A stretch of 21,902 nucleotides of DNA from NCBI GenBank assembly GCA_043803815.1, contig JAZDJR010000027.1:1-21902 (forward strand). The letters are read 5' to 3'. A model generated the notes under the pieces. It saw nothing but the letters and a program-made list of their open reading frames with translations, was not told the DNA's origin and ran no database searches. How positions within the stretch are numbered: the first letter of the stretch is position 1; every line of letters starts with the position of its first letter. Below are positions 3,075 to 21,737 of the stretch, in pieces. This stretch comes from Candidatus Micrarchaeota archaeon (GTDB lineage Archaea > Iainarchaeota > Iainarchaeia > Iainarchaeales > JAGVWC01). The position numbers were made by a program, and so were the translations under genes.

Positions 3075-4176
3075 ATTGTTATCCCAAGGCCTTACGTTCG
3101 ACCAGGAAAGCCTCGAGGGATTGGGAAGTAAATTCAAGGAAGAACACCACGGCTATGACTTCTCCAATTGGGGGGTAAAAAAAGAGCTGTTATTGCCTTC
3201 GGAACTCATGCTTCCGGGAAACATCGTCGTGTGCGTACACAATAGGCCGGAATCGCCGTTTCAGGTAAGAATGGAAGACAGAAAAAGGTTCATTTACAAA
3301 GGCGAAGAAAAACTTTCCAAAATAAGCTTTTTGCCAAGGCCGAAATCCTGGAGCAAAAGCACCAGCGACGGGACTTCGTTAAAAAAAATAATAAACTTTT
3401 ACGGCTACGACTGCATAAACCTGAACATATATTCAGGCTGCGACTTTTGGAATGCCGGACTCCCCTGCCAATTTTGCAGCGTTGCGCCCACGCAGAGAAC
3501 ATTCAAAGAAGCAGTAGTTGAAAAAAAAATCGAACAGGTCCGCGAAGCGTTTAAGACCGCATTTAAACTGGAAAAAGACATCAACTTTGTACTGACAACG
3601 GGCGGGTCACATCTTGAAGCAAACACCGAAGTAAAAGACCAAATCAATGTTTTAAGTGCAATAAAAGAAATCGTGCCTTGGAAAAAAATCAAAGGCAACA
3701 CCGCGTTAATGCCGCCAAAAGACCTTTCATTGATTGGCAAGCTTTATGAAACCGGAATCGAACACCCTTCCTTCAACCTTGAGGTTTGGGGCAAAAAAAA
3801 CTTCCAAAAAACCTGTCCCGGAAAGGAAAAATACCGCGGATATGACCACATCTTTGAGGCATACAAAGAAGCGGTCAAGGTTTTTGGAGACGGCGCCATG
3901 TGGTGCAATTTTGTGGCCGGAATCAACTCGCTTGAGGAATTAAAAGAAGGATTTACCGCAATGGCTGAAATGGGGGTAATTCCAGGAGCAAACGTATTTC
4001 ATCCCGATGTCGGTGCGGTACTTGGAACCAAGCTAAAAAGTCCAAGTACGGAATACATTATTGACTTATTTCACCATGCGTCAGACTTGTACCACCAGTA
4101 CGGCTACAAGCCGTTCTTTTCGGAATCCGTGTTAAGAAATTCTATAGCAAACGAAGCGTACCATGGTTTGATTTAA
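3043..4176 (+). CDS. Radical SAM protein with a CX8CX2C motif
   Basis: CDFWNAGLPCQFC at 3439-3477, TTGGS, FNLEVW and TCPGK. Overlaps the GT2 stop region. Confidence 0.85.
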   Translation: MKSQSARIKTELLSQGLTFDQESLEGLGSKFKEEHHGYDFSNWGVKKELLLPSELMLPGNIVVCVHNRPESPFQVRMEDRKRFIYKGEEKLSKISFLPRPKSWSKSTSDGTSLKKIINFYGYDCINLNIYSGCDFWNAGLPCQFCSVAPTQRTFKEAVVEKKIEQVREAFKTAFKLEKDINFVLTTGGSHLEANTEVKDQINVLSAIKEIVPWKKIKGNTALMPPKDLSLIGKLYETGIEHPSFNLEVWGKKNFQKTCPGKEKYRGYDHIFEAYKEAVKVFGDGAMWCNFVAGINSLEELKEGFTAMAEMGVIPGANVFHPDVGAVLGTKLKSPSTEYIIDLFHHASDLYHQYGYKPFFSESVLRNSIANEAYHGLI

Positions 4177-4793
4177 TGAAAAAAGAACAGCTGGACAGCG
4201 GCGGGAAAAAAATAACCGTTTTTTCAAGCCACGCAAAAAAACCCCTTGCAGCCGTCGTATACCTGCATGGAATTCGAGGAACGCCAAAAGAGCTTTCAAT
4301 GATGAAAAAAGACCTGGAAAAAAAATGCGACGTTTGCTTTTTCGATTTTGATTATAAACACATAAAAAAAATACTCCCCATCTTGAAAAAATTCCTAAAG
4401 CAAAAACCCGGTGGAATCCCATTAGTGATTGCGGGATTAAGTATCGGCGGTGCCTGCGCAATAATCCTTGGAAAGCAGTGCGATGCCGACTTGGTTGTTC
4501 CAATAAATTCGTTTTACAGCCGGGCAATGCTTTTTAAGGAAAAAAATTTGGGAAAATGCGATTTCGACCTGAAGCCCGCAAAATATCTGAAAGACATCAA
4601 AAGAATGGAAATTATTTGCTCAAAAAACGACGAAAAAATCCCAAACCGCCATTCAATCCTTCTTTTTGACGAGTTCCGCGGAAAAAAAGAAATTCATATA
4701 TTGGAAAATACCGAGCATGCTTGCAAAGAAAAAACCGCACAGCGAAAAATAGCGGAAATAATCATCGGCTCTTGCCGCGCCTTGCGTCGCTAA
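4176..4793 (+). CDS. Alpha/beta hydrolase (esterase-like)
   Basis: YLHG oxyanion motif, GLSIGG nucleophile elbow, NDEKIP (Asp) and ENTEH (His). TAATG coupling to the radical SAM gene. Confidence 0.8.
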   Translation: MKKEQLDSGGKKITVFSSHAKKPLAAVVYLHGIRGTPKELSMMKKDLEKKCDVCFFDFDYKHIKKILPILKKFLKQKPGGIPLVIAGLSIGGACAIILGKQCDADLVVPINSFYSRAMLFKEKNLGKCDFDLKPAKYLKDIKRMEIICSKNDEKIPNRHSILLFDEFRGKKEIHILENTEHACKEKTAQRKIAEIIIGSCRALRR

Positions 4794-5514
4794 TGTGTTT
4801 TCTAATCGCTTTTTGGGTCTGATTTACCGACTTTTTTTGGGGAACAGAGGACAAGTCAACAGTCCTCAATTTCCCAGTCCTGAAATAATAATCAAGAATC
4901 GGCTTGATTACCGCATTATATTTTCTAATCCTTGCCTGCATAACCCGAATTTCCGAATCGCCAATGCGGGTGCCAAGCGAACCGTGGCAAGAATCGCACT
5001 TTCCGTCCCTCTTTGGCGGTTTAGTAACCAAATTATACGTTGCTCCGCACGCGTTGCAGGTCAAGCGGTATTTTAACCGGTCGAGCAAAAACTGGTCGCT
5101 GAGTTCAAGGTTTACAACCAAATTCAATTCCGCATTATGCTTTCTCAAAAGAACATCCAAATCGGCAGCAGATTCTATCGTTCTTGGAATCCCGTCCAAA
5201 ATAAAACCTTTGCTGCAGTCCAGCGATTTCAGTTTTTTCTCGACTAAATCCAGCAAAACCGCACTTCCAAGCTCTTCAGTAACCAAACCGCCGCGGCCTA
5301 TTATTTCTTTAATTCTTGCGCCTAACGCAGTTCCTTTTTTTACCTCTTCTCGCAAAAGTTCCCCGCCGGAAATATGCGGAACGCCATACTTTTTGCTGAC
5401 CAAGCCGGCCTGTGTACTTTTCCCGGTTCCCGGTTTTCCCAATAAAACCAAATTTAGTCTTGGTTTTTCACGCCGCTTTGGAAAAAAGTTTCTTAATCTT
5501 TCAAAAGCGGGCAT
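4762..5514 (-). CDS. adk: Adenylate kinase with a zinc-binding LID
   Basis: GKPGTGKST P-loop, HISGGELLR, GFILDGIPRT and LID CNAC...CDSC. Confidence 0.85.
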   Translation of the reverse strand: MPAFERLRNFFPKRREKPRLNLVLLGKPGTGKSTQAGLVSKKYGVPHISGGELLREEVKKGTALGARIKEIIGRGGLVTEELGSAVLLDLVEKKLKSLDCSKGFILDGIPRTIESAADLDVLLRKHNAELNLVVNLELSDQFLLDRLKYRLTCNACGATYNLVTKPPKRDGKCDSCHGSLGTRIGDSEIRVMQARIRKYNAVIKPILDYYFRTGKLRTVDLSSVPQKKSVNQTQKAIRKHISDARRGKSR

Positions 5515-5533
5515 ACTATCACAAAGCCAAATG

Positions 5534-6160
5534 CTAGCGAAGGCCGGAACGGGTAAGTTTTTGAACTCTTTTGGTCCTTATCCGCCAATTATACCCTTGA
5601 GCCACTCTTGCGGCCGATTTTTTAATTGAATCCGAACCTCGCAAAGTTTTCAAAAGTTTCTTGTGCTTATAATGCATTAAAACCTCGACAATGTTGCCCT
5701 GGAAAAAACGTTCCCTTTCCAACGGGTCCTCCCACTTGCCCCTTTTTTTCACAGTCCTGCGTTTAAGGCTCAAGGAAGCGGGAACATACATGTGGAACAC
5801 CGTATTCAACTCCAACCCGTATTTTTTTATAAGCCCGTCAAGCAAGTCGACTTGTTTCATAGTGCTTGGAAAATTATCCAAGACAAAACCCCGCTTAAAC
5901 TTGCCTGGCTGGGAATGCAATGCCTGTTCTATCATCTCAATGACAAGTTCATCAGGAACCTGCTTTTTTTCGGCAAATACCTGCTGAAAAAATACTCCCA
6001 GTTTGGAGTTTTTTGCAGCTTCAGTCCGGGCCAATTTTCCAATGGAAATGAAAGGAAGGCCGATTTTTCGGTGAACTTCCATCCCAGCTCTTGTTTTTCC
6101 GCTTCCCGTCCGCCCCAAAAGAACAAAAACTTGAGCACCATTAAAGAAATCGGGATTCAA
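5534..6160 (-). CDS. Adenylate kinase-family NMP kinase, LID-less and divergent
   Basis: GRTGSGKT, ISIGKLAR, VPDE and GFVLDNFP. Start placed at TTG 6160 after a GGTG SD-like site. The 32-codon upstream extension in the ORF track looks non-coding. Confidence 0.75.
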   Translation of the reverse strand: MNPDFFNGAQVFVLLGRTGSGKTRAGMEVHRKIGLPFISIGKLARTEAAKNSKLGVFFQQVFAEKKQVPDELVIEMIEQALHSQPGKFKRGFVLDNFPSTMKQVDLLDGLIKKYGLELNTVFHMYVPASLSLKRRTVKKRGKWEDPLERERFFQGNIVEVLMHYKHKKLLKTLRGSDSIKKSAARVAQGYNWRIRTKRVQKLTRSGLR

Positions 6161-6259
6161 AAAACAACACCAATAGCAATATATCAAATGAAGAGAATAT
6201 ATAGATTCTCGCTTTAAAAATAATAATACCGCAATATACAAATCAAAGAAGGTCAACCG

Positions 6260-6840: not shown

Positions 6841-7998
6841 TTATTTTTTGGCGACGATTAACGGAACCCATAGCTCCTGCTTGGATAGGCCGCCGTGATG
6901 GCTGATGTGGTGCTTTGGCTTTTCATAGTCCGGAACGCTGTTAAGGCCCCAGCCAGTTTTCATCAAAAGCGTGTAATCTCCGATTCGTTCGTAAAAATGC
7001 GGGTGCACGGTAAACCGCCCGAAAAGCCCTTTTTTGGCCAATTCTTTGCTTTTGAACAAATCGCACGAACGGCCAAAGCGTGATTTTACGTATTTAACAA
7101 ACGCTTTTTCTTTTCCCAGGCGAACCGAACAAAAAGAAAAACGATGCTCGCCGGACAAGGGCGTTGCCAGAATTTCTTTCAATTTCGGGTGGTCATTCAA
7201 ATCGATTGTTTTCTTTTTTGGAACATCAATCAATCCATGGTCGGCCGTTACAATTACGATGGTATTTGTTCCTTCAATGGAATCCAAAAAAGAGGAAAAA
7301 TCGCGGTCCAATTGCCTGAAATGCGAAACCACCTGTCGGCTATCCGTTCCGAACTTATGACATAAGGAATCGATTTTGTCATAATACGCATAAACAAATT
7401 TTCTTTGTTTTCCCGAACCAACGGCTTTTTGGATGCTGCTGAAAAAATCTTTGCGGGTTTTGAAACCGATTCGCTTGGCTTTTCCGGCGCACGTCGAGGA
7501 AAAATCCGAATCAAAATAGTCCCGATGCTGAATAATAAAAGATTTTGTCTTCAAACGGTTTGTCAGCCAATCCAGGCGAAAAACGTTTTGGATTGGAATT
7601 TTTTCCTGCAGAGAAACCTTTTTTTCCAACCGCAACACATACGGCAACGGAATCACAACGCTGCCAAACTCCCACAAAAACATGTACCAAGCCAGCATGC
7701 CGTGCTCTTGCGGGGACAGACCAGTTAAAAAGGACGGAATCGCGGAACTCGTGCTGGTCGGAAAAACACTCGTCATTTTTCCGCGCAAAAAATGAAAAAA
7801 GGAACTGTTCTTTCCGTGCTTTTGCAAGAACTCAAAGCCCAACCCATCCACAACAATCAAAACAACGTTTTTGACCTGTTTGAGTTCCTTTGGGGACAAA
7901 AGACGCAACGGCGCATAACCGGAACGGCCGCCAAACGCGGTTTCAATGGAAGAAACCAGATTCAAAATGCTTCCGCCGGAATAATCGGGCTTATTCAT
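6841..7998 (-). CDS. Alkaline phosphatase superfamily protein (type I phosphodiesterase / nucleotide pyrophosphatase)
   Basis: VVDGLG, SVFPTST, D...HKFG, TADHG and HHGGLS.EL.VP motifs. Confidence 0.9.
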   Translation of the reverse strand: MNKPDYSGGSILNLVSSIETAFGGRSGYAPLRLLSPKELKQVKNVVLIVVDGLGFEFLQKHGKNSSFFHFLRGKMTSVFPTSTSSAIPSFLTGLSPQEHGMLAWYMFLWEFGSVVIPLPYVLRLEKKVSLQEKIPIQNVFRLDWLTNRLKTKSFIIQHRDYFDSDFSSTCAGKAKRIGFKTRKDFFSSIQKAVGSGKQRKFVYAYYDKIDSLCHKFGTDSRQVVSHFRQLDRDFSSFLDSIEGTNTIVIVTADHGLIDVPKKKTIDLNDHPKLKEILATPLSGEHRFSFCSVRLGKEKAFVKYVKSRFGRSCDLFKSKELAKKGLFGRFTVHPHFYERIGDYTLLMKTGWGLNSVPDYEKPKHHISHHGGLSKQELWVPLIVAKK

Positions 7999-9095: not shown

Positions 9096-10088
9096 TCATT
9101 TATCCAAAAACGCGCCAGCCACGAGCAATGGAAACAAAATTGTGGTATCGCCGACGACTTTTACGGTGTTGGCGTCCGCGGAGATTTTTCCCCATGATTT
9201 GGCTTCTTCCGGCTCGGCACCCGAGTCTGAGCCGTCGAATTCGCTCGAAGTATTCATATAAATCGCGTATTTGGCGCCTTCGCGGTACATGTTGGCGTTG
9301 CAAAGCGTGTGCTTGACAAGCCCCGCGCCGACAATCAAAATTCCGGTTTCTTTGGCGTCGAGTGTCATTTCAATCAGGCGATGATGGTCCATAATCTGGT
9401 CGATTACGAGCTTGGTTTTCTGGTTGTAATTGAAAAAATAGCAGTTGTCCCCTACCGCGCCGTCCATGAAAGCAGGGCAAAAAATCGGAATATTGTTTTT
9501 GGATGCCCAATAACAAATCGATTCGCGGTTGTCGATAATCTCACCCATTTTTTTGATTATTTCCGAAGCAGAAAAAATTTTTCCCGAATTGATTTGCTCA
9601 TTCAGGCACTCTTTCAGGATGGGCTGAAAGAATTTTTCAAACCAGGTATAATGCTCGTTTGGCGCGAGCAGATTTCCGATGCGATTAATCCCTTTTTTTC
9701 GCAAGGCTGCGCCATCCAGGCGAAAATCCGCGACAAAAAAAGGCGCGTGGCACTTGATAAAATCCTCTTCGATTCCGCCGGTTGTGGTCACGAGGCAATC
9801 GACCAAGCGGTGCTCGACCAAATAGCGGATGACTTCGCGGTTGCCGCTGGAAACCTGATTTGAAGTATACCCCAAAAAAAGCGTTACTTTTTCTTTTCGC
9901 ATTTTTTTGCAGATTTCAATGGCGCGGGCAAGGTGCGTAGCCTGAAAGCCCGCGGTTCCAAACGAATCCAAAAGTTTCGAAAGGTCCGCGGGTTCGTTAA
10001 AATCAATTCCGCGAACCGCTATGCCGCTTGCTTTCGCGCTTTTCTTAAAAATGCTCTTATACGCGTCCTTAAAGGTTTTTTTAGCCAA
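9096..10088 (-). CDS. dys: Deoxyhypusine synthase
   Basis: GFQAT, LGYTSNQVSSG.RE, TTGGIEED, GINRIGN and FDGSDSGA.PEEAKSWGK (catalytic Lys). TTG start after GGTGAT. Confidence 0.97.
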   Translation of the reverse strand: MAKKTFKDAYKSIFKKSAKASGIAVRGIDFNEPADLSKLLDSFGTAGFQATHLARAIEICKKMRKEKVTLFLGYTSNQVSSGNREVIRYLVEHRLVDCLVTTTGGIEEDFIKCHAPFFVADFRLDGAALRKKGINRIGNLLAPNEHYTWFEKFFQPILKECLNEQINSGKIFSASEIIKKMGEIIDNRESICYWASKNNIPIFCPAFMDGAVGDNCYFFNYNQKTKLVIDQIMDHHRLIEMTLDAKETGILIVGAGLVKHTLCNANMYREGAKYAIYMNTSSEFDGSDSGAEPEEAKSWGKISADANTVKVVGDTTILFPLLVAGAFLDK

Positions 10089-10178: not shown

Positions 10179-13034
10179 ATGACTTTAGACTTTTCCGGCA
10201 TGGAAGCCAAATGGCAAAAAGAATGGGACCAAAACCGCGTTTCCAAAGCCAATGCCCAAAAGGGAAAACCCAAGTTTTTTTTGATTTTTGCCTACCCCGG
10301 AATGTCGGGCTTTTTGCACGTTGGACACATGCGCGGCTTCACCTATTCCGACGTGATTACGCGATTCAAACGCATGCAGGGCTACAACGTTCTTTTTCCC
10401 GCGGGTTTTCACGCGAGCGGATTACCCGCGATTTCGTACGCCACCAAGGTCCGCAAAAAAGACCCTTCCACGATTGAACAACTCAAAGCATATGGACTGA
10501 ACTCAAACCAAATCGCGGAACTGGAAAAACCTGAAAATGTGGTCGCGTTTTTTTCCAAAGTTTATGTTAACGATTTTTGGAAACCGTTCGGATTCCTCAT
10601 CGACTGGAACCGAGGAATAAGCACGATTGCTCCCGAATACCAAAAATTCATCGAATGGCAATTCAAAAAACTCAAGCAAAACAATTTGCTCGTGCAAAAA
10701 CCGCACTACGCGCCCCAATGCCCCGTGGACGGACCGGTAGCCATCGACACCAGCGAAACCGACATTTCAAGCGGCGGAAACGCGCAAACACTCGAATACA
10801 CGCTCCTCAAATTCAAATACGATTCTTACGTTTTGCCTGCGGCCACGCTTCGGCCCGAAACCATTTTCGGAGTGACCAACTTTTGGCTTAACCCCGAAAC
10901 CACCTTGATTGAATGCGAATACCAAAACCAAAAATGGCTCGTTACCAAAGAAGCCGCCAATAAAATCGCTTACCAAAAACCGGAATTCCAAATCAAGACC
11001 AAAACCATTCCCGCAAAAGAACTCATCGGAAAAACCGTAACCAATCCCGCAACAAACCAAAAAATAATCATTTTGCCAGCCTTTTTTGTGGATGCTGGAA
11101 CCGGAACCGGCATTGTCATGAGCGTTCCCAGCCACGCGCCATTCGACTGGATAGCGCTTTTTGAACTGCAACAAAAACCCGAACAATTAAAAAAATTCGG
11201 AATCGACCAAAAACAATTGGACAGCATCCGGCCCATTTCATTAATCAATACCGCGGGCTACGGCCCCCACGCCGCAATCGAGGAATGCCAAAAGCGCGGA
11301 ATCGTTTCGCTTTCGCAGGAAAAAGAACTCGAAGAGGCAACCAAGGCGGTTTATGCCGCGGAGTTCCACGCGGGAAAACTAAACGCGATTTACAAGGAAT
11401 TGCAGGGAACCACCGTCAGCCAGGCTAAGGACAAAATCATCGAATCGTTCAAACGGCAAAAAATCTGCGACGACCTGCTCGGCTTTTCCGAAAAAGTGAT
11501 TTGCCGCTGCGGTACCGAAGTCGTATTCAAGCACATCCCCGATCAATGGTTCATCCGCTACTCAGACGAAACCCTAACCCAAAAAACCAAAGACCACGTA
11601 TCCGGCATGACCGTTGTTCCCGAACAATACAAAACCGAACTGCCCGCAATATTGGACTGGTTTTCCGACCGCGCCTGCGTCCGCCAGGGAAACTGGCTCG
11701 GCACGCGCTTTCCATTCGACAACAAATGGATAATCGAACCCATTTCCGATTCCACGCTTTATCCGTTGACTTATCTTTTCAGCAATTACGTCAAAGAAAA
11801 AAAACTCTCGGAAAAAAACCTGACCGAAGAATTCTTTGATTTTGTCTTTTTGGAAAAAGGAAAAAGCGGCGATGCGGCCAAAAAAAGCGGTATTAGCGAG
11901 GCTTTATTGGAGCAAATCCGGTCCGATGTCCAGTACTGGTACCCGTTAGACATCAATTTGGGGGGCAAGGAGCACAAAACCGTGCATTTCCCCGTTTTTT
12001 TAATGAACCATTGCGGAATACTGCCCCAAAAATACTGGCCAAAAGGCATTTTCGTCAACTGGTGGGTCACGGGCGAAATCGGCAAAATATCCAAATCCAA
12101 AGGCGGTGCAAACTCGCTTCACGACCTGACCACACGGTTTTCCGTCGACGCGCTTCGCCTCTATTACTGCAACATCGGAAACCCGCACCTGGATATCCAG
12201 TTCAGCGAAGAAACCGCCCAAAAATACAAAAACACGCTTGAACGAAACCAGCAAATAATCGAAAAAAGTTTGAGTAGCAAGACCACTGAACTGCGGCTGT
12301 TTTTGGACGAATGGCTCGAAAACAAGACCCGCGAACAATTCCAAACCGCCTACCAAGCTCTCGAAGAATACCGCATCAAGGAATACTCGGAAACCGTTTA
12401 CTATTCAATCCCCCAAACCATCAAGGACTACTTCCAGCGCGAAGGAAACAACGCCAAACTCCTGCAAAAAATCGTTTCCGAATGGACACTATCCATGGCA
12501 CCAATTACTCCCCACTTGGCCGAAGAAAACTGGCACGTTCTTTTAAAACAAAAAACATTAGTTTCCACACAAATTTGGAAACCCGATTCCAAACCCGTTA
12601 ATCCAAGCGTTCTTCAAGCCGAAAACATGATTAACCGGCTCTGCGAAGATATCGAAAAAATCAAATCGCTTGCCAAAATCGCCAAACCAAAATCGATTAC
12701 GTTTTATCCAAGCCCGAAATGGAAATGGAACCTGCTCAAAACAGTCCTAGACACCAACACCGACAAACCCGACTTCAAAAAAACAATCGGATTAATCATG
12801 CAAAAAACCGAATTCAAATCCCGCGGAAACGAAATCCCCCAACTCATCCAAAAAATCCTGAACGACGTGGGCTCCCTGCGCGAAATCGTTTCCGTTGACG
12901 AAGTTAAAGTACTTACGCAGGAACAAAAATTCTTCGAAAAAAAATTTGGCTGCACAATCAAAATCGAAGCGGAATCAGCCAACCCAAAAGCAGGCAAAAG
13001 CTTTCCGCAAAAACCGGCGATACAAATAGAATAA
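10179..13034 (+). CDS. leuS: Leucine--tRNA ligase (archaeal type)
   Basis: 951 aa. HVGH, ATLRPET, GTGIVMSVPSHAPFD (editing domain), IEPISDST and KISKSKG. Confidence 0.97.
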   Translation: MTLDFSGMEAKWQKEWDQNRVSKANAQKGKPKFFLIFAYPGMSGFLHVGHMRGFTYSDVITRFKRMQGYNVLFPAGFHASGLPAISYATKVRKKDPSTIEQLKAYGLNSNQIAELEKPENVVAFFSKVYVNDFWKPFGFLIDWNRGISTIAPEYQKFIEWQFKKLKQNNLLVQKPHYAPQCPVDGPVAIDTSETDISSGGNAQTLEYTLLKFKYDSYVLPAATLRPETIFGVTNFWLNPETTLIECEYQNQKWLVTKEAANKIAYQKPEFQIKTKTIPAKELIGKTVTNPATNQKIIILPAFFVDAGTGTGIVMSVPSHAPFDWIALFELQQKPEQLKKFGIDQKQLDSIRPISLINTAGYGPHAAIEECQKRGIVSLSQEKELEEATKAVYAAEFHAGKLNAIYKELQGTTVSQAKDKIIESFKRQKICDDLLGFSEKVICRCGTEVVFKHIPDQWFIRYSDETLTQKTKDHVSGMTVVPEQYKTELPAILDWFSDRACVRQGNWLGTRFPFDNKWIIEPISDSTLYPLTYLFSNYVKEKKLSEKNLTEEFFDFVFLEKGKSGDAAKKSGISEALLEQIRSDVQYWYPLDINLGGKEHKTVHFPVFLMNHCGILPQKYWPKGIFVNWWVTGEIGKISKSKGGANSLHDLTTRFSVDALRLYYCNIGNPHLDIQFSEETAQKYKNTLERNQQIIEKSLSSKTTELRLFLDEWLENKTREQFQTAYQALEEYRIKEYSETVYYSIPQTIKDYFQREGNNAKLLQKIVSEWTLSMAPITPHLAEENWHVLLKQKTLVSTQIWKPDSKPVNPSVLQAENMINRLCEDIEKIKSLAKIAKPKSITFYPSPKWKWNLLKTVLDTNTDKPDFKKTIGLIMQKTEFKSRGNEIPQLIQKILNDVGSLREIVSVDEVKVLTQEQKFFEKKFGCTIKIEAESANPKAGKSFPQKPAIQIE

Positions 13035-15089: not shown

Positions 15090-16013
15090 ATGCTTGCACT
15101 GATTGGCTTGGGTTACTGGGGAAAAAATTATTATTCCACACTGACCAAGTTAGGAAAACGGTGTCTGCTTCGTTATATTTACGACTCTAACGAAAAATTA
15201 AGAGGGAAATATAGTGGTGAAAAAATAATCTTTGCCAAATCCATAGATGAAATTTTAAAAGATGACTCAGTCAAGGGAGTAATCATAGCTACCCCACCCG
15301 CCACTCATTTTAAAATTGCCAAGGCCTGTTTATTGGCTGGAAAAAATGTGCTTGTTGAAAAACCATGCACGGGAAATTTAAAAAAAGCGATGGAATTAAA
15401 GAAAATTTCGAACACGATTGGGCGCCAACTGCTCGTTGGAAACATTTTCCTATTTGATGACTGCGTTAAACGTCTCAAAACCAAAATTAAGAAACAAAAA
15501 ATAAAATTCGTCTCCATTAAGCGATTATTAACTCCTAAAAGAGAAGATGCCGATATACTCCTTGATGTTGTTTTTCACGATTTATATTTAACGAATTATC
15601 TCTTCGATAAGAATTTCAAGGCTAAACACGCATTTATAACCAAGAAATTTGCACGCCAATTTGATTATGCTCACATAACCCTATCCAATGGACCGACCAT
15701 TGTTTGCATCGAAGCGGGGCTGGTTTATCCAAAAAAAGTAAGAGAGCTTCTATTAGTAAGCGACAAAAAAAGTTTCTTTTATGACCAAAACTATTTGACT
15801 GAATACAAAAATATTTTTTCCGAACAAATACCCCGCTTTAAACTCCTTTCAAAAACCAAAAATCGCGCAACCCCATTGGAAAACGAATGTATCAATTTCA
15901 AAAACGCGATTCTTGGCGGAAAAGACAACTACAAAACCCTGCACTACGCGTTAATAAGTTTGCAAAAAATCAAAGAAATCAGGAAGTTATGCCATGCAAA
16001 TACCTTTTGTTGA
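15090..16013 (+). CDS. Gfo/Idh/MocA family NAD(P)-dependent oxidoreductase
   Basis: IGLGYWGKN, ATPPATH, GKNVLVEKP and D...HD motifs. AAGGA SD. Confidence 0.92.
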   Translation: MLALIGLGYWGKNYYSTLTKLGKRCLLRYIYDSNEKLRGKYSGEKIIFAKSIDEILKDDSVKGVIIATPPATHFKIAKACLLAGKNVLVEKPCTGNLKKAMELKKISNTIGRQLLVGNIFLFDDCVKRLKTKIKKQKIKFVSIKRLLTPKREDADILLDVVFHDLYLTNYLFDKNFKAKHAFITKKFARQFDYAHITLSNGPTIVCIEAGLVYPKKVRELLLVSDKKSFFYDQNYLTEYKNIFSEQIPRFKLLSKTKNRATPLENECINFKNAILGGKDNYKTLHYALISLQKIKEIRKLCHANTFC

Positions 16014-17085
16014 CCTCTACCGAGAGAATCGCATCTGCCAAAAAAGAGTCTTGAATTCAATAACCGAACTGATACAGAACGGCACCTTTATTCTTGGCAA
16101 AGACGTAGAGACTTTTGAAAAAAAATTTTCCGACTATATTGGAGCCAAGTATTGCGTTGGAGTTAATTCTGGAACCGACGCGCTGTACCTGGCGCTCTTA
16201 GCCAACAATATTGGACCCGGAGACGAAGTTATCACAACAGCAAACACATACATAGCAACCGCATTGAGCATCAAATATACCGGGGCCAAAACAGTTTTTG
16301 TTGACATAAAACCGGGGCAGTATAACATAAATCCGGAAAAAATACAGGAAAAAATCACCCCAAAAACAAAGGCTATTTTGCCAATACACTTATTTGGGCA
16401 TCCAGCCAATTTAAAGGAAATAAAAAGGGTTGCCGATGAAAACGACCTCGCATTAATCGAGGATTGTTGTCAGGCCCACGGAGCAACAGCAAACAATCGC
16501 AAAGTCGGAACTTTTGGGGACGCGGGATGTTTTAGTTTTTACCCGTCAAAAAACCTTGGCGCGTTTGGAGATGGGGGAGCACTAGTAACAAATAATCAAA
16601 ATATTTACAAAAAAGCGCTTGCCATGCGCTCCTATGGCCAAGTCGCCAAAAATAAACATGATTTATTCGGCGTCAACAGCAGGCTGGATTCTATCCAAGC
16701 GCTTGTTCTGCTTGAAAAATTAAAATATCTCGACGAAAACAACAAAAAAAGAAGGATTCTCGCTAAACGATATAAAAACGGCCTAACAAGCAAAGAATTT
16801 ATCCTGCCAAAAGAAGAGAAAAATTGTAAATCCGTTTATCACTTGTTTGTTATAAGAACAAAAAAACGCGCCCAACTCATCAAGTACCTCACGTCAAAAA
16901 AAATCGGGTTTGGAATACACTACCCAATTCCGATTCATCACCAAAAAATTTTTTCCGAGTATTGTGGACAAAAACTCCCAATAACCGAAAAATACAGCAA
17001 CGAAATAATTTCGCTCCCATTTTTTCCCCATATGTTAGAAGAAGAAATATCTCGAGTAATTGAAAAATTAAATGAATTTGGATGA
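15994..17085 (+). CDS. DegT/DnrJ/EryC1/StrS family PLP aminotransferase
   Basis: IPFVDL, NSGTDAL, GDEVI, HLFG, EDCCQAHGA, SFYPSKNLGAFGDGG (PLP Lys) and NSRLD. Confidence 0.95.
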   Translation: MQIPFVDLYRENRICQKRVLNSITELIQNGTFILGKDVETFEKKFSDYIGAKYCVGVNSGTDALYLALLANNIGPGDEVITTANTYIATALSIKYTGAKTVFVDIKPGQYNINPEKIQEKITPKTKAILPIHLFGHPANLKEIKRVADENDLALIEDCCQAHGATANNRKVGTFGDAGCFSFYPSKNLGAFGDGGALVTNNQNIYKKALAMRSYGQVAKNKHDLFGVNSRLDSIQALVLLEKLKYLDENNKKRRILAKRYKNGLTSKEFILPKEEKNCKSVYHLFVIRTKKRAQLIKYLTSKKIGFGIHYPIPIHHQKIFSEYCGQKLPITEKYSNEIISLPFFPHMLEEEISRVIEKLNEFG

Positions 17086-18496
17086 TTTGATGGATTGCGC
17101 AAGCATGATTGTAAAGCACAGCGGCAAATATCTTTTGCAATTAAGAGACGATAATCCAGCCATTCCTTTCCCGAATACGTGGGGATTATTTGGCGGAAAA
17201 ATTGAGCCCAATGAAACGCCCGAAGAAGCGGTGTTCCGCGAGTTCAAAGAAGAGACCGGAATAGCCATTGATAAATTTTATTTTTATAAAAAAGCAGAAT
17301 TTGCCGACGGGAATGAATACCTGTTTTATACTCTCGATTATATTCCATTGCGGAGAATACAACTATCGGAAGGACAAAAAGCGGAGTACGTTGCAAAAAA
17401 CAAGCTTAAAAAACTGGGTTTTTGTTTGCATGACGGGGTTGATTTGGTTGATTTTGATGCTAATTTTTCTAAACGCCCCAAGGGCGCCCCCTTAAACAGG
17501 TATTCCCGGGTACGCGCATTACTATTTGAAAATAAGCTGCCGCTAGAAAATCAAAAAATGGGTGTGCAGCCATTACCTCAAGAAGCAGAGACTTTTTTCA
17601 AAAATTCCCATTTTTTTAGAAGGGGCATTTTTATCGGACAACGCGGATTTGAAGAGACACTTAAAGGAATAGGGAAGGGAGAAAAATTCGACGTAGTGGT
17701 TGGGGTTGCCGCTTCAGGACAGTTCCAACTTGGGGGAAAACTGGACATTACTGTGTTAAATTTTTTTAAGTCAAAAGGAATGCCGGTACATGTATGGATT
17801 CTTGATATCGACGGGTATATCGACAGGAAAAGAGTCCATTCCCCCATCGAAGCAAAAGCGTTTACTAAAAATTATATCAAAAATATCAAAAAACTCGGGC
17901 TAAGCGAGGACGATATCGTGATTCAAAGCCAAAAAGAGAGCGATTATTTTACGGATGCGTTATGCCTGTCCAAGGAAATAACGCTTAATACATTCTCAAA
18001 AACATACGGCCATTGCAATGCAGGATTCTTATTTTCTTCCTTGTTAATGTATTCAATGTTTTTTAATTATATTAAGCAAAAAAAGAAAGTGCTGGGCATC
18101 GGCGGAATAGAAGAGGATTCCCACGCCAGGATTTTGCGGGACATTTTACGGAAAAAATACGGCACGCCCGAAGGCATTTCTTTTTTATATTTCAAACACC
18201 AGGACAACCTTACAATCGGCAATGACCGGTTGAGCTCTTCACACCCCGAATCAACAATATTTTTTGACGAACCGGAAAGCGAAATCAGCCAAAAAATAAA
18301 TGCCGCATTCGAATACAAAGAAGACATAACAAAATGCAAAGTATTTGAATTTTACAAATATAACGAACCAAACGACCAAACACTTAATAAAATATTTGGG
18401 GACTGCGTTTCCAACAAACTGAATTGTAAAAACTGCAAAAAAACGGCAACGCAAATGGTTCTAAACATAATTAAACCAAAAATGGAAGAAGGATAA
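17072..18496 (+). CDS. Nudix hydrolase fused to a degenerate tryptophanyl-tRNA synthetase-like domain
   Basis: Intact Nudix box GKIEPNETPEEAVFREFKEETGI. The C-terminal ~310 aa aligns by eye with the downstream TrpRS (RG.F.G.R.F, ASG, LSK.IT..TYG, EDSH.RI.RD), but HIGH is QLGG and KMSKS is RLSSS. Confidence 0.85.
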   Translation: MNLDDLMDCASMIVKHSGKYLLQLRDDNPAIPFPNTWGLFGGKIEPNETPEEAVFREFKEETGIAIDKFYFYKKAEFADGNEYLFYTLDYIPLRRIQLSEGQKAEYVAKNKLKKLGFCLHDGVDLVDFDANFSKRPKGAPLNRYSRVRALLFENKLPLENQKMGVQPLPQEAETFFKNSHFFRRGIFIGQRGFEETLKGIGKGEKFDVVVGVAASGQFQLGGKLDITVLNFFKSKGMPVHVWILDIDGYIDRKRVHSPIEAKAFTKNYIKNIKKLGLSEDDIVIQSQKESDYFTDALCLSKEITLNTFSKTYGHCNAGFLFSSLLMYSMFFNYIKQKKKVLGIGGIEEDSHARILRDILRKKYGTPEGISFLYFKHQDNLTIGNDRLSSSHPESTIFFDEPESEISQKINAAFEYKEDITKCKVFEFYKYNEPNDQTLNKIFGDCVSNKLNCKNCKKTATQMVLNIIKPKMEEG

Positions 18497-18508
18497 AGGA
18501 GACTAAAA

Positions 18509-19603
18509 ATGAATTTAAACGCACTTTTAGAAGATAACCAAAAATTAGTAGACCGATTCGGCGCACAACGCATTCAAGACCTTTCAGACGTTCCGGATTT
18601 TTATACTTTTAAGAATGGACTTATTTTTTCCCATCGCGACTTTGACACATTTTATGCCGGATTAAAAAAAGGAAAAAGAAGCGCCATCGTTTCAGGCTTT
18701 AATGCCTCCGGAACTATGCATATCGGCCACAAAGCCGTTTTTGACACCAACCTATTTTTTCAAAAAAAATACGGTTTGCCCGTCTTTATTCCCATTTCAG
18801 ACGATGAGAGTTATGTTTCCGGAAAAGTTGAATCGCAGGAAGATGCACTAAAAAATTCGATGCAATTGGCAAAAGAAATGCTGGCGTACGGATTCGACCC
18901 TCAAAAAACGTATATTGTCATTGACCAGATTTATACAACGATTTATAATCTGGCCATAAAGCTATCGAAACGGCTAACAGTATCAGAAGTTCGGGCAACA
19001 TACGGGTATCGAATGGAAAATAATCCCGGATTATTTTTTTATCCTTGCATCCAAGCCGCCCACATCTTGCTTCCGTTGGAATCCTTCAATTTCGAGCAAA
19101 TATTGGTCCCAATAGGCCCTGACGAAGATAGTCACATTCGGATTTGCCGAGACTTGGCCGGAAGATTTGGATATGCAAAACCCGCCGTTCTTCATGTGGC
19201 TTTTATGCCCGGCACCGACGGTTCAAAAATGTCAAAATCACGAAACAACATGATCAACCTGCAAGACGACGAAAAAATCATTCGCAAACGAGTCAGCAAA
19301 GCATTCAGCGGGGGGGCCATCACAGTTGAGGAGCATCGAAAAAATGGCGGAGACCCAACCAAAGACATATCGTTTTTTTACCTTTCAAAATATTTTTTGA
19401 ATCAAAACGAAGCCAATAATCTCGCAAGCAAGTACCAAAACGGCGAACTATTAAGCGGGGAAATGAAAAAAATGCTGGCAGACAAACTGGTCGAGTTCAC
19501 CACCCAATTCAAAAAGAATCTTTCCCAAATCACCGAACAAGAAATCAAAAAAGTATTATTGTCAAAAAAAGAAACCGGGACAGAAACCCACGAGCCACAG
19601 TAA
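18509..19603 (+). CDS. trpS: Tryptophan--tRNA ligase (archaeal/eukaryote-like)
   Basis: HRDFD, SGTMHIGH (HIGH at 18719-18730), SDDE, YPCIQAA, KMSKS (19226-19240) and AFSGG..T.EEHRKNGGDP. AAGGAG SD. Confidence 0.92.
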   Translation: MNLNALLEDNQKLVDRFGAQRIQDLSDVPDFYTFKNGLIFSHRDFDTFYAGLKKGKRSAIVSGFNASGTMHIGHKAVFDTNLFFQKKYGLPVFIPISDDESYVSGKVESQEDALKNSMQLAKEMLAYGFDPQKTYIVIDQIYTTIYNLAIKLSKRLTVSEVRATYGYRMENNPGLFFYPCIQAAHILLPLESFNFEQILVPIGPDEDSHIRICRDLAGRFGYAKPAVLHVAFMPGTDGSKMSKSRNNMINLQDDEKIIRKRVSKAFSGGAITVEEHRKNGGDPTKDISFFYLSKYFLNQNEANNLASKYQNGELLSGEMKKMLADKLVEFTTQFKKNLSQITEQEIKKVLLSKKETGTETHEPQ

Positions 19604-19756: not shown

Positions 19757-20638
19757 TTAAAGCAATTTGAACGGCGACGCAGCTCGCACTTCTTTTTTAT
19801 TTGGAAAGTATTCCGCAATTTTTTCATAGGCAAAACGGGCCAATTGGGGGTTGCGAAAAATCCGCACCGTTATATCCATTTTGGGCTGCTTTTTCATCAA
19901 ATGCTTGGAATAAAGCGAAAAAAGGTCCACTAAATTGTTGAGTTTTGAATACAAGTTTTCCAACATTTTTCGGGTTTCTTTCGAAAACTCGACTTCATAA
20001 TAATACGAACCTGAAGCGCCAAAATCCTTTTCGAACGTTGCTGTCGGGTCAATGTGAACCGAAAAACCTGCTTCCTCATACCGCTCTTTTACCCAACGGT
20101 CAAAGGGCAAATTTTCCCCAATCAAGACAAAAATCTTGCCAGACTGCACTTCTGCCATTTTATGCAGGAGCGAGAAATCCGTAAAACTAAATGACAATGG
20201 AAACCATGCGCCCCGAATGAAAGCTATTGCCGCTCCCTTTGGTTCCATGATTTTTCCCATTTGGATAAAAATTTTTGTCATTGAAACGCAAAAAACGGAA
20301 AAATTGTCAAAGTGCAATTCGGTTTGAGCCCCAAATTTTTTAGGAACCTTTTTGGCTCCCGAACGGGAAAGCTCTGCTTCCAAGTCCAAAGAAAACTTTT
20401 TTAGATTCAAAACCCAATCCAGGTCAAGGGCAAACTTCCTGTTTTCGAAAACCACGATTCCTTCAGATTCCAACTGCGAAAGCATCTTGTGAACCGCTTG
20501 ATACGAAAAACGCTCTCCCGATAACCGCTCCAATTCTACCTGAATTTCCTTGACAGAAAGCGGCCATTGTTTACTCAAAATCGAAACAATCAAGTCGCGC
20601 GAAGAGCCTTTCTTACCAGCCAAAGGAACCAAGACCAT
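19757..20638 (-). CDS. wHTH (YQxVHK family) regulator with an uncharacterised C-terminal domain
   Basis: SSRDLIVSILSKQWPLSVKEI..FSYQAVHKML..LDWV. Paralog of 20868-21737. Start taken at ATG 20638. Confidence 0.8.
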   Translation of the reverse strand: MVLVPLAGKKGSSRDLIVSILSKQWPLSVKEIQVELERLSGERFSYQAVHKMLSQLESEGIVVFENRKFALDLDWVLNLKKFSLDLEAELSRSGAKKVPKKFGAQTELHFDNFSVFCVSMTKIFIQMGKIMEPKGAAIAFIRGAWFPLSFSFTDFSLLHKMAEVQSGKIFVLIGENLPFDRWVKERYEEAGFSVHIDPTATFEKDFGASGSYYYEVEFSKETRKMLENLYSKLNNLVDLFSLYSKHLMKKQPKMDITVRIFRNPQLARFAYEKIAEYFPNKKEVRAASPFKLL

Positions 20639-20706
20639 AAATGCACAAGTGGACAAAAGGTGTTTAAAGCAGTTTTAATGCCTGCTACGACATTACGCTC
20701 TCGTTC

Positions 20707-20867: not shown

Positions 20868-21737
20868 TCATGTGCTTGGTGATTTTGGACCATGCGTTTC
20901 CCAATACTTTTGGTAAAGCTTGATTCCTTCTTCTCTTAGGTTTCTTGCGAGCTCGGGATTTCTGGATATTACTACTTTGATTTGGCTTTTTTGCGTGTAA
21001 ATTTCAAACAATTTGGCTAAGTCAAAAGTATCAATATTTTTGGTTTTAGCAAAAATAGCATTTATTTTAGTCTTTAGTTCAAGAGGATAAAAAATCTGCG
21101 CTACATAATCCCCTTCCACTACAATATCCCCCTCAGCAGGGTAATTGACCCCATAAATCGATTTTTTCCCAAGTTTTACCACAAACTGGTTTCCATAGTG
21201 GTCTAGTGGCGTATTACCACGATACAGACCATAATAAGGAAGTTCAAAAATTCGCTTGATCTGCTCAAAATCTTTTTCGTCGGCGCCAATAGGCATCCAA
21301 GCGTGCATTAGCATTGCAATGCGCGGTTTTTTTTCAGGGTTTGGAAATTCCCAATTAAACTTATGAACAATAAACCGGATAGTCTCCAGCAAACTGTCAA
21401 AACGCAGGTTAATTATATCTTGATTTTGAAAATTCTTAAATGGGCTTTCTTGCGCATAGTTTTGACCGAGCTGTTCACTAAACGATTTGATTCGGCTAAT
21501 CCAATCTGAATTCAGGCAATACCCCTCTTCTCCCCTTACAACAACTTTTTCACTTACCAACAGACCAATCATTTTATGGACTGCTTGGTAAGTTGCAGAA
21601 ATAGCATACTCTGTTTTTGCAATCTGATGAATTTGCTTTAAAGACAAAGGCCAACGATTTGACAAAATGCTAATAATAGCATCTTTTGTGGAAAGTCCTT
21701 GAATTCCCAGTCCTGGCAGGGTTAAAGTAATGGACAT
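20868..21737 (-). CDS. wHTH (YQxVHK family) regulator with an uncharacterised C-terminal domain
   Basis: STKDAIISILSNRWPLSLKQI..TYQAVHKMI..LNSDWI. Shares HAW.P/GAW.P, N.P.D and RNP.LAR with 19757-20638. AGGAG SD. Confidence 0.85.
   Translation of the reverse strand: MSITLTLPGLGIQGLSTKDAIISILSNRWPLSLKQIHQIAKTEYAISATYQAVHKMIGLLVSEKVVVRGEEGYCLNSDWISRIKSFSEQLGQNYAQESPFKNFQNQDIINLRFDSLLETIRFIVHKFNWEFPNPEKKPRIAMLMHAWMPIGADEKDFEQIKRIFELPYYGLYRGNTPLDHYGNQFVVKLGKKSIYGVNYPAEGDIVVEGDYVAQIFYPLELKTKINAIFAKTKNIDTFDLAKLFEIYTQKSQIKVVISRNPELARNLREEGIKLYQKYWETHGPKSPST

Follow-up and report, generated by a model that had tools for sequence, protein, structure and literature searches.

What becomes of an aminoacyl-tRNA synthetase when its catalytic signatures have been exchanged and a hydrolase has been added at its N-terminus? 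The question is raised by a contig of Candidatus Micrarchaeota archaeon (JAZDJR010000027.1 of assembly GCA_043803815.1; here, the window is this whole stretch of 21,902 nucleotides), which encodes a Nudix domain joined in one open reading frame (ORF) to a domain resembling tryptophanyl-tRNA synthetase (TrpRS), directly followed by a gene for a canonical TrpRS (Table 1). The data discussed below support a model, to which a probability of about 0.6 is assigned, where the fusion is a selectively maintained, neofunctionalized TrpRS paralogue with an active-looking MutT-type Nudix domain, and where the TrpRS-derived part is a ligand-binding module that directs or regulates the Nudix.

A first-pass annotation of the window had described the ORF as intact over 474 codons with a complete Nudix box, which is confirmed: the frame is uninterrupted and residues G42 to G63 fit the consensus. 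The positions that it gave for three unusual motifs, QLGG, RLSSS and AFEYKED, are exact, and the placement of QLGG at the HIGH site and of RLSSS at the KMSKS site is reproduced both by pairwise alignment and by a multiple alignment of 46 sequences. Pfam recognizes both halves of the protein, i.e., NUDIX (PF00293) at residues 17−85 (E 5e-12, 46.4 bits, cut-off 21.1) and tRNA-synt_1b (PF00579) at residues 204−463 (E 1.3e-11, 44.8 bits, cut-off 21.1). The linker between them has 8 of 24 aligned positions identical to those of the orthologue introduced below (residue bin 136−160).

The C-terminal part has the fold of a TrpRS. An AlphaFold2 (AF2) model of this part, built from 46 sequences, has predicted local distance difference test (pLDDT) values, averaged over 10-residue blocks, of at least 90 along most of residues 171−470, and the lowest block is at 83. 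When this model is compared with the PDB using Foldseek, the top match is the Aeropyrum (A.) pernix TrpRS (3a04, E 3.6e-21, TM-score by target 0.77), which is also the closest solved-structure sequence in a phmmer search (E 1.3e-22). Other archaeal and eukaryotic-type TrpRSs follow, with a protein from Entamoeba (E.) histolytica deposited as a "TrpRS homolog" (3hzr) at rank 44. A search of the ESM Atlas for look-alikes of the fusion returned TrpRS clusters only, and no Pfam match to cyclodipeptide synthases or to another paralogue family was found at E values up to 0.1; the domain is far closer to true TrpRSs than to cyclodipeptide synthases. In NCBIfam, the C-terminal two thirds of the protein come closest to archaeal TrpRS models. 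The protein nevertheless fails the NCBIfam cut-offs for the archaeal TrpRS family NF008925 (E 1e-43, 149.7 bits, cut-off 451) and for the trpS equivalog TIGR00233 (68.4 bits, cut-off 176.75), the latter of which is passed by the neighboring TrpRS (236.1 bits).

The replacement of canonical catalytic residues, which the first-pass annotation had pointed out, is borne out in an alignment of three fusion proteins with 43 canonical TrpRSs (alignment A3, 46 rows). Human residue numbers are used here for orientation; we take them to correspond to the fusion by motif context, and the position of M326 at human Gln284 is presumed in the same way. The first His of the HIGH signature, which reads HxGx in the canonical proteins, is found in 43/43 TrpRSs and is Gln in 3/3 fusions (Q219), while the fourth residue of this signature (His173), a His in 77% of the 43, is G222 in the window protein and Asn in the orthologue P0002. 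Replacements that are the same in all three fusions also affect the KMSKS lysine (Lys349; Lys in 95%, here R386), the methionine that follows it (Met in 100%, here L387), the glutamine of the AIDQ-type motif (Gln313; Gln in 95%, here E348) and a ligand of the Trp α-amino group (Gln284; Gln in 88%, here M326). The aspartate of the AIDQ-type motif (88%) is replaced by E347, and a residue beside M326, which is Asp in 81% of the TrpRSs, is deleted. In human TrpRS, His173, Lys349, Ser351/Ser353, Gln284, Gln313 and Glu199 bind ATP and the α-amino group of Trp, as described in PMC2275098.

In pairwise alignment, QFQLGG of the fusion lies opposite TMHIGH of the neighbor (26% overall identity), and K>R and M>L are the only changes that separate RLSSS from KMSSS, the reading of the closest true TrpRSs; most TrpRSs of the lineage referred to below as type A read KMS(A/S)S. 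Across the fusions, the site reads RLSS(S/A), and both serines are present in the window protein. Residues G221, D245, S388, R353, R356 and D357 as well as the DIDGY segment are retained. Conservation in at least 75% of the canonical TrpRSs is reached by 68 columns, 29 of which are unchanged in every one of the three fusions and 39 of which deviate in one fusion or more; five of the 68 (columns 1, 42, 43, 57 and 58) are not meaningful because they belong to a misaligned N-terminal stretch; the first ~20 TrpRS residues are spuriously placed on the Nudix part in this alignment. An earlier, combined MAFFT alignment (A2), in which TrpRS rows were laid onto the Nudix region, was discarded in favor of separate TrpRS (A3) and Nudix (A4) alignments. 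Because the motif changes (H>Q, K>R, M>L, D>E and Q>E) are conservative and fixed, they look like remodeling rather than erosion, and it is quite probable, judging from these residues, that the pocket has been reshaped such that the protein no longer makes Trp-AMP.

The C-terminal helical domain has been altered in a different manner. It had been described in the first-pass annotation as an eroded anticodon-binding segment, which is correct to the extent that the contact loop is deleted: 11 columns of the anticodon-contact loop GGRxTxEEQRxLGGxP, corresponding to the AFSGG..EEHR..GG.P segment of the neighbor, are gapped in 3/3 fusions, Y/C and K stand in the place of GG, and the alignment shows no last helix. 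The elements by which TrpRSs recognize the anticodon are an FSGGRD loop with an inserted helix and the equivalent of human Lys431. In human TrpRS, the loop residues Ser378, Gly380, Arg381, Asp382, Ile384 and His387 contact the anticodon bases C34−A36, according to PMC1538984. The description as erosion does not extend to four cysteines, absent from the earlier annotation, nor to the lysine that follows them. The cysteine spacing of 22, 6 and 2 residues fits the C-x(21-24)-C-x6-C-x2-C pattern of the [4Fe-4S] subgroup of TrpRSs; PMC2954223 reports that the anticodon-binding domain of the Thermotoga (T.) maritima TrpRS holds a [4Fe-4S] cluster chelated by C-x22-C-x6-C-x2-C and that the motif is found in TrpRSs of anaerobic bacteria and archaea. 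This suggests that the fusion carries a putative [4Fe-4S] site. The equivalent of the fourth cysteine is Leu430 in the human enzyme (PMC2954223), where the next residue, Lys431, makes a key contact to the anticodon base C35 (PMC1538984); K456, located immediately after the fourth cysteine, is by this position placed as the equivalent of Lys431. Because the loop and the last helix are lost while the Fe-S cysteines and the lysine stay, the C-terminal domain is better described as trimmed than as simply eroded.

The combination of a Nudix domain and a TrpRS-derived domain, which had seemed unfamiliar at first pass, is real and rare. A word-seeded search of 5.8 billion protein clusters returned two relatives only, P0001 (90% identity, 474 aa, on a 1.9-kb contig) and P0002 (59% identity, 462 aa, from a metagenome-assembled genome titled Candidatus Iainarchaeum / Diapherotrites), both of which have the same fused ORF and altered motifs as the window protein. 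A profile search of 1.84 billion 50%-representatives gave 4735 matches at E ≤0.001; among the best 150 of these, the P0002 cluster alone covers both domains, and the next-best match (152.6 bits) is an ordinary 365-aa TrpRS. Among the matches listed, the fusion thus amounts to a single 50% cluster. Two of the order's 196 species genomes hold the fusion, i.e., the window genome (family f1, 85.6% complete) and a genome of family f24 (92% complete), G178, whose locus is identical with that of G041 (contig C23, 59% identity, 479-aa frame); the latter is referred to below as the second genome. The fusion was not found in the three other f1 genomes or in any of 40 closer relatives. Two metagenomic proteins, P0008 (588 aa) and P0127 (536 aa), are canonical Fe-S-type TrpRSs with N-terminal extensions of ~190−245 aa and are thus further cases in which this kind of TrpRS has been extended at the N-terminus.

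The source of the TrpRS-derived domain was sought in a maximum-likelihood tree of 41 rows, rooted on the tyrosyl-tRNA synthetase (TyrRS) of the window genome. The single canonical TrpRS genes of related genomes fall into two groups, type A and type B. The three fusion domains group together (support 100), their common stem measuring 2.71 substitutions per site, and this group is nested in a 17-row clade (support 98) of type-A TrpRSs that includes those of genomes G002 and G003 of the same family; the four-cysteine motif is present in 6 of the 14 canonical rows of this clade. The neighbor is found in the type-B clade, beside the TrpRS of genome G010, on a branch of 1.84 (median end branch 0.37). 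Forcing the fusions and the neighbor together is rejected by the approximately unbiased (AU) test (delta lnL 49.2, p-AU 0.018), where the groups compared were named after the tree had been seen and involve long branches. Type-A TrpRSs of relatives (14 genomes) are 33−38% identical to the fusion domain (E 1e-37 to 1e-50), while type-B TrpRSs match the neighbor better than the fusion. Because of the nesting in the tree and the rejection of a grouping with the neighbor, the domain is, by phylogeny, a derivative of the Fe-S type-A TrpRS lineage; the notion that it arose as a duplicate of the neighbor is not upheld.

The neighbor reads PDEDSH where other TrpRSs have DQDPH, i.e., it shares the Q>E and P>S changes with the GIEEDSH of the fusion. 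Recent gene conversion between the two genes was considered and rejected: despite the common EDSH variant no clear tract was found, the EDSH stretch being identical at 25 of 48 nucleotides, and third-position identity in 15-codon windows ranges from ~0.1 to 0.6 and peaks beside the deletion, in a part of the alignment that is unreliable.

After the burst of change on its stem, the fusion appears to have evolved slowly. Within its clade, branch lengths (0.47; 0.59+0.08) are similar to those that ordinary TrpRS orthologues have, the median of whose end branches is 0.37. Between the window and the corresponding locus of the second genome (L016), the amino-acid identity is 58.7% for the whole fusion and 67.4%, 61.9%, 50.7% and 33.3% for its Nudix, catalytic-like, C-terminal and linker parts, respectively. 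The genes with which it is clustered are less conserved, with 48.3% for a DegT-family aminotransferase, 31.7% for a GFO/IDH/MocA oxidoreductase (GFO) and 32.8% for the neighboring TrpRS, which makes the fusion the best-conserved gene of this four-gene cassette. The proportion of nonsynonymous differences (pN) is 0.24−0.26, with 0.24 in the catalytic-like part, at a saturated proportion of synonymous differences (pS) of 0.83. Because pS exceeds 0.75, dN/dS is given no number; from these proportions it must nevertheless be well below 1, which implies purifying selection, a case built on three sequences with saturated dS. Neutral decay, raised in the first-pass annotation, is contradicted by the low pN relative to the saturated pS. 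Neofunctionalization, unlike decay, is expected to leave a burst on the stem and slow change of the ordinary kind thereafter, as is the case here.

The Nudix domain looks active. A separate AF2 model of residues 1−142, built from 83 sequences, has a mean pLDDT of 93.7 and a pTM of 0.87, and Foldseek matched this model, which has the α/β/α Nudix fold, to no fewer than 500 Nudix entries of the PDB at E ≤0.001. Residues R56, E57, E60 and E61 of the Nudix box are invariant across the 83 aligned Nudix sequences. With all catalytic box residues present, the domain is a predicted pyrophosphohydrolase. Fold similarity is about equal to NudI, MutT, diadenosine tetraphosphate (Ap4A) hydrolase, RppH and GDP-mannose hydrolase (E 3e-9 to 1e-7, the first four lying near 1e-9 to 1e-8), and the fold therefore indicates no substrate. 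Every NCBIfam match to the Nudix part is under its cut-off (MutT, 43.9 versus 97.9 bits), including a weak one to the NadM-Nudix family NF003787. Standalone Nudix homologues are 26−39% identical to the domain, and no second copy of it was found at E ≤0.001 in the window genome, which is 85.6% complete. In a poorly resolved phylogeny, it groups with metagenomic standalone Nudix proteins and not with those of relatives.

Taken in sequence, the proposed history and function would be as follows. A paralogue of the Fe-S-type archaeal TrpRS that many genomes of this DPANN order (Iainarchaeia/Diapherotrites-type) carry would be the source of the C-terminal part. In a burst of change, residues binding ATP and the Trp backbone would have been replaced by a new conserved set (Q219, M326, E347, E348, R386 and L387), and the anticodon-contact loop and last helix would have been lost, while the fold, the interface formed by connective peptide 1 (CP1), the Fe-S cysteines and the anticodon lysine were kept. 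The resulting protein would no longer activate tryptophan and would form a class-Ic-type dimer, with a homodimer as the default. Its TrpRS-derived module would bind a ligand, either a nucleotide-type molecule in the remodeled pocket or tRNA(Trp) or its acceptor end, and would thereby give specificity or regulation to the Nudix domain tethered near the former active-site entrance. The location of the Nudix is suggested by analogy: in human TrpRS, an N-terminal fragment flanks the catalytic domain and contacts the tRNA at its 3' end (PMC1538984), and a Nudix fused ~25 residues upstream would for this reason lie near the old site.

Several observations weigh against this model. In the full-length AF2 model, the Nudix domain and the linker have pLDDT values below 50 because the full-length alignment had no Nudix rows, and the model therefore gives no usable inter-domain geometry. 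The near-equal fold matches and the subthreshold NCBIfam scores of the Nudix part, the small number of sequences behind the selection analysis and the choice of AU groups after inspection of the tree, all noted above, point in the same direction, as do the conservative nature of the motif substitutions and the variability of the fourth HIGH position. In addition, the adjacency of a TrpRS gene is kept in both genomes, which fits a functional link to the neighbor, and the one complex model gave a heterodimer-type contact with it.

The latter observations relate to the interpretation offered at first pass, i.e., that a dead fusion subunit heterodimerizes with the adjacent TrpRS, such that the Nudix domain, held by the live site, clears Ap3A/Ap4A or channels a nucleotide. 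A complex model of residues 160−474 with the neighbor reached an ipSAE of 0.61 (runs at 0.61, 0.61 and 0.63; best control 0.00) on a scale where the calibrated mark is reached by 58 of 80 solved complexes and by 2 of 110 mismatched pairs, the calibration being approximate because custom alignments were used. The three runs agree in at least 94% of contacts, partner pLDDT is at least 84, and the modeled contact is the canonical CP1 interface (residues 286−324 of the fusion). CP1 forms the dimer interface also in human TrpRS, according to PMC1538984. The predicted contact thus passes, while the choice of partner does not follow: because TrpRS dimers have already been solved, the result shows a retained TrpRS-type dimer surface rather than the identity of the partner, and it does not separate a hetero- from a homodimer. 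Conservation of the interface gave no signal in this respect, since the interface is no better conserved than the rest in either protein; between the two genomes, 11 of 33 interface residues are identical on the neighbor side and 19 of 32 on the fusion side.

Further support for a heterodimer is found in the short distance between the two genes (12 nt in the window and 51 nt in L016), in the presence of an Ap4A hydrolase (3i7u) among the best structural matches of the Nudix domain, and in the trypanosomatid TyrRS, a class Ic pseudo-dimer with one dead half (PMC9437257). Against it, the two putative subunits belong to different TrpRS clades, share 26% identity, and, by the above counts, differ in how far their sides of the modeled interface are identical between the genomes. 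The orthology of the two neighbors, 32.8% identical, is also doubtful: with a borderline p-AU of 0.042 for their being sisters, the cassette TrpRSs of the two genomes may not be orthologues. If they are not, the adjacency would have been re-created, which in turn argues for a functional link. The neighbor in the window lacks the four-cysteine motif, which the cassette TrpRS of G041 has. Class Ic synthetases bind tRNA across the dimer (PMC2954223), and a heterodimer would be a poor synthetase because its live site would rely on the loop-less anticodon domain of the fusion. A homodimer is at least as likely as a heterodimer, and the heterodimer model as a whole is considered unlikely, though a live rival.

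The gene order GFO-DegT-fusion-TrpRS is common to the window genome and L016. In the window, GFO and DegT overlap by 20 nt and DegT and the fusion by 14 nt; in L016, DegT and the fusion are separated by 5 nt and the locus goes on to genes for a radical SAM/SPASM protein and a GT1 glycosyltransferase. The true start of the fusion may be the second ATG, at 17090, rather than that at 17072, giving 468 aa: this start matches that of P0002, and the equivalent Met lies 5 nt past the DegT stop in the window locus and in L016 alike. The GC content of the cassette is 38.9%, a value within the bottom 1% of 943 4.5-kb windows, compared with 46.6% for the genome, and the cassette occurs in two families of the order, f1 and f24. 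This distribution fits lateral transfer of an accessory cassette, the alternative being an ancient origin with many losses. Because the gene travels in a compositionally atypical four-gene cassette, an accessory function is suggested rather than one in core translation.

Table 1. Features of the Nudix-TrpRS-like fusion and of the genes in its cassette (positions in the window; residues in fusion numbering unless stated).
Feature	Position	Strand	Basis or remark
GFO/IDH/MocA oxidoreductase, first cassette gene	15090..16013	+	best match archaeal UDP-GlcNAc 3-dehydrogenase, 90 bits (cut-off 450)
DegT-family sugar aminotransferase	15994..17085	+	best match PseC, 261.7 bits (cut-off 423.5)
Nudix-TrpRS-like fusion ORF	17072..18496	+	474 aa, intact frame
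Nudix domain (aa 1-135), minimal MutT/NudI-like fold	17072..17476	+	Pfam, AF2, Foldseek
Nudix box G42..G63-I64, G-x5-E-x7-REUxEExGU, complete	17195..17263	+	regular expression; invariant residues in alignment
Poorly conserved linker (aa 136-159)	17477..17548	+	orthologue comparison; pLDDT <50
TrpRS-derived domain (aa 160-474): Rossmann fold, CP1, shortened C-terminal helical domain	17549..18493	+	
QLGG at HIGH site, aa 219-222	17726..17737	+	alignment; QLGN in orthologue P0002
M326 where Gln is conserved	18047..18049	+	alignment with 43 TrpRSs
GIEED replacing GxDQD (AIDQ-type) motif; D>E 347, Q>E 348	18104..18118	+	alignment
RLSSS at KMS(A/S/K)S site, aa 386-390	18227..18241	+	K>R, M>L
AFEYKED, aa 412-418, site of missing anticodon-contact loop	18305..18325	+	alignment
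C422-x22-C445-x6-C452-x2-C455 motif	18335..18436	+	pattern match; invariant in 3/3 fusions
K456	18437..18439	+	invariant in 46/46 aligned sequences
Canonical TrpRS neighbor, type B, 364 aa	18509..19603	+	HIGH at aa 71, KMSKS at aa 240 (neighbor numbering), no Cys motif

The GFO and DegT genes suggest, from their annotation, a branch of NDP-amino-sugar metabolism, and the fusion could be an enzyme of this pathway, where the Nudix domain cleaves or edits an NDP-amino-sugar and the Rossmann domain binds a nucleotide or an aminoacyl donor. The conserved GFO-DegT-fusion order and its tight spacing in both genomes, the nature of the best matches (UDP-GlcNAc 3-dehydrogenase and PseC type, both below cut-offs), the radical SAM/SPASM and glycosyltransferase genes to which L016 goes on and the presence of GDP-mannose mannosyl hydrolase, a Nudix enzyme, among the fold matches are all consistent with this assignment. 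So is the low GC content of the cassette; low GC is typical of glycan islands. Furthermore, one of 16 fetched standalone-Nudix loci of relatives (in G012) has the Nudix gene between two DegT genes, but this Nudix is not the closest relative of that in the fusion, and the other 15 loci have no nearby DegT, GFO or TrpRS homologue with the queries used. Nothing connects the TrpRS fold to NDP-sugars, and small DPANN genomes pack unrelated genes tightly. Overall, a role as a sugar-nucleotide enzyme is rather improbable, though, like the heterodimer, a live rival.

In the G012 locus (L055, G012:C1:102000-112000), the standalone Nudix, of 149 aa, is translationally coupled between the two DegT genes (3514-6231, minus strand), and the surrounding glycan cluster also holds GT61, GT15-like, methyltransferase and flippase genes. 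The flanks (~1.5 kb on each side) of TrpRS genes in the genomes of 35 relatives contain no Nudix, DegT or GFO homologue. Nor was a tandem TrpRS pair, about which the first-pass annotation had asked, seen there; G009 and G011 have two TrpRS matches each, on separate contigs. A second class Ic ORF beside the TrpRS of G010 was considered as a possible pair and rejected, because it encodes a TyrRS (L024, G010:C20, 3-734, minus strand), which lies immediately upstream of this TrpRS and diverges from it; the G010 TrpRS is the nearest relative of the neighbor in the window. The second genome also has a canonical type-A TrpRS, on contig C24, which makes its cassette TrpRS an extra copy. In the window genome, which is 85.6% complete, no TrpRS besides the neighbor and the fusion was found. 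Two TyrRS copies in G041 (L017 and L018) are 95.3% identical (345/362), one of them residing on a 1.2-kb contig, which suggests strain heterogeneity in this bin.

Another possibility is that the TrpRS-derived domain is still an ATP-dependent ligase, either an odd TrpRS or an enzyme that, like MshC or GluQRS, activates an amino acid for a non-canonical acceptor. Residual or altered ATP-dependent chemistry may persist because the substitutions are conservative (Q for H, R for K, L for M, E for D and Q) and the fourth HIGH position is variable among the canonical TrpRSs compared. Both serines of KMSKS, DIDGY, R353/R356/D357 and G221 are kept, and paralogues of aminoacyl-tRNA synthetases with new acceptors, such as MshC and YadB, are described in PMC9437257. 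Two of the residues that change, the first HIGH His and the KMSKS Met, are, however, without exception in the 43 TrpRSs, the glutamine equivalents of the Trp α-amino ligands are lost, and the scores lie far under every TrpRS equivalog cut-off. A retained ligase activity is thus judged improbable.

A more far-reaching idea combines elements of the above. The cassette could be a tRNA-linked sugar-modification module, where GFO and DegT would make an NDP-amino-sugar and the cassette TrpRS would supply Trp-tRNA(Trp) or Trp-AMP. The motif-less domain would have retained its acceptor-end pocket, Fe-S cluster and dimer while losing the ATP chemistry; it would act like a cyclodipeptide synthase and transfer Trp to the amino sugar, after which the Nudix domain would cleave the nucleotide handle. 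Such a module is a long shot; if true, the domain would be the first aminoacyl transferase derived from a TrpRS, and DPANN archaea would have an aminoacylated glycan precursor. Finally, a decaying duplicate that was joined to a Nudix by chance fusion or assembly error and evolves neutrally, as the non-canonical signatures and the tiny family might suggest, is very improbable given the same intact ORF in three independent assemblies, altered motifs that are identical at 59% overall identity, the highest conservation in the cassette, the low pN and the short branches after the stem.

Other genes of the window are mentioned here for completeness. A look-up of sequencing runs for the cassette region (15090-19603) listed none, nor any RNA data. 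Downstream of the cassette, on the minus strand, 19757-20656 and 20868-21737 encode proteins of 299 aa and 289 aa, respectively, without Pfam or NCBIfam matches, which by eye look paralogous. A homologue (E 2e-16) is found just upstream of GFO in L016 (4862-5710, minus strand) and a fragment of the family lies beside the type-B TrpRS of G039 (L033); the family may travel with type-B TrpRSs or with the cassette. Upstream of the cassette, a leucyl-tRNA synthetase of 951 aa (10179-13034, plus strand) has a GC content of 46.5%, and the region of higher GC also includes a deoxyhypusine synthase (9096-10088, minus strand) and a type I phosphodiesterase/nucleotide pyrophosphatase-family protein (6841-7998, minus strand). 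ARAGORN found only 22 tRNAs in the 1.08-Mb assembly of the window genome (G000). Of two tRNA-Trp calls (C9:189-285, minus strand, and C15:7184-7347, plus strand), one is a credible, intron-bearing tRNA-Trp(CCA), while the other, with a 69-nt intron and a poor fold, is probably false.

Returning to the model of a neofunctionalized paralogue, its components have counterparts among known systems. The Fe-S TrpRSs (T. maritima TM0492 and A. pernix 3a04) are alike in fold, closest in sequence and share the four-cysteine motif and the Lys after the fourth Cys, while the fusion differs from them by having substitutions at HIGH, KMSKS, the AIDQ-type motif and the specificity Gln, by lacking the 11-column anticodon loop and the C-terminal helix, and by its added N-terminal Nudix. 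The E. histolytica protein 3hzr is similarly a TrpRS-fold protein not deposited as a synthetase, but it is eukaryotic, has no Nudix and is of independent origin. Its class I active-site motifs are reportedly gone (Merritt et al. 2011, Mol Biochem Parasitol 177:20), and its tRNA-recognition region is said to be fully conserved, whereas the contact loop of the fusion is deleted. In NadM-Nudix, a Nudix is likewise joined to a Rossmann nucleotide-binding domain of the HxGH class, but the partner is an active nucleotidyltransferase rather than a relic of a synthetase. The Nudix of NadM-Nudix is C-terminal, i.e., the domain order is opposite to that in the fusion. The small MutT/NudI-type (d)NTP pyrophosphohydrolases, of ~130 aa and with a full Nudix box, are the best sequence and fold matches to the Nudix domain, which differs from them in being fused and in scoring below all equivalog cut-offs.

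The fusion, if its synthetase-like module is inactive as is probable, resembles the double-length TyrRS of trypanosomatids, where one class Ic half has lost activity and is kept as a dimer partner (PMC9437257). In that enzyme, the dead and live halves reside in one polypeptide and together charge tRNA (PMC9437257), while the module described here is a separate gene product, belongs to a different clade from the live neighbor and carries a hydrolase. In HisZ, MshC, YadB/GluQRS and the cyclodipeptide synthases, synthetase folds have been recruited to regulation, non-tRNA ligation and aminoacyl-tRNA-dependent transfer (PMC9437257); unlike the fusion, none of these has a Nudix domain. The table of synthetase-like proteins in this 2022 review (PMC9437257) lists none derived from TrpRS. 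In a search of the literature by titles and abstracts, neither a Nudix-TrpRS fusion nor a TrpRS-derived pseudo-synthetase from prokaryotes nor Iainarchaeal synthetase paralogues were found described. In other words, synthetase-derived non-synthetases and fusions of Nudix with HxGH-class domains are already known, while for the Nudix-TrpRS fusion no description was found.

The finding has limited reach, as only 2 of 196 genomes in a single DPANN order contain the fusion. From the above discussion, it becomes a clean natural example of a paralogue in which the catalytic set was rewritten and then frozen by selection, and synthetase-derived proteins with new tasks, such as HisZ, MshC, GluQRS and the cyclodipeptide synthases, have repeatedly uncovered new biochemistry. 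What sets it apart is the combination of a retained Fe-S site, a hydrolase that by analogy would be fused beside the old active site, a TrpRS encoded next door and a cassette that apparently moves between families. The role of the Fe-S cluster of TrpRS itself is described as unresolved in PMC2954223, and the fusion would offer a tractable handle both on the purpose of this cluster and on the re-use of the synthetase scaffold.

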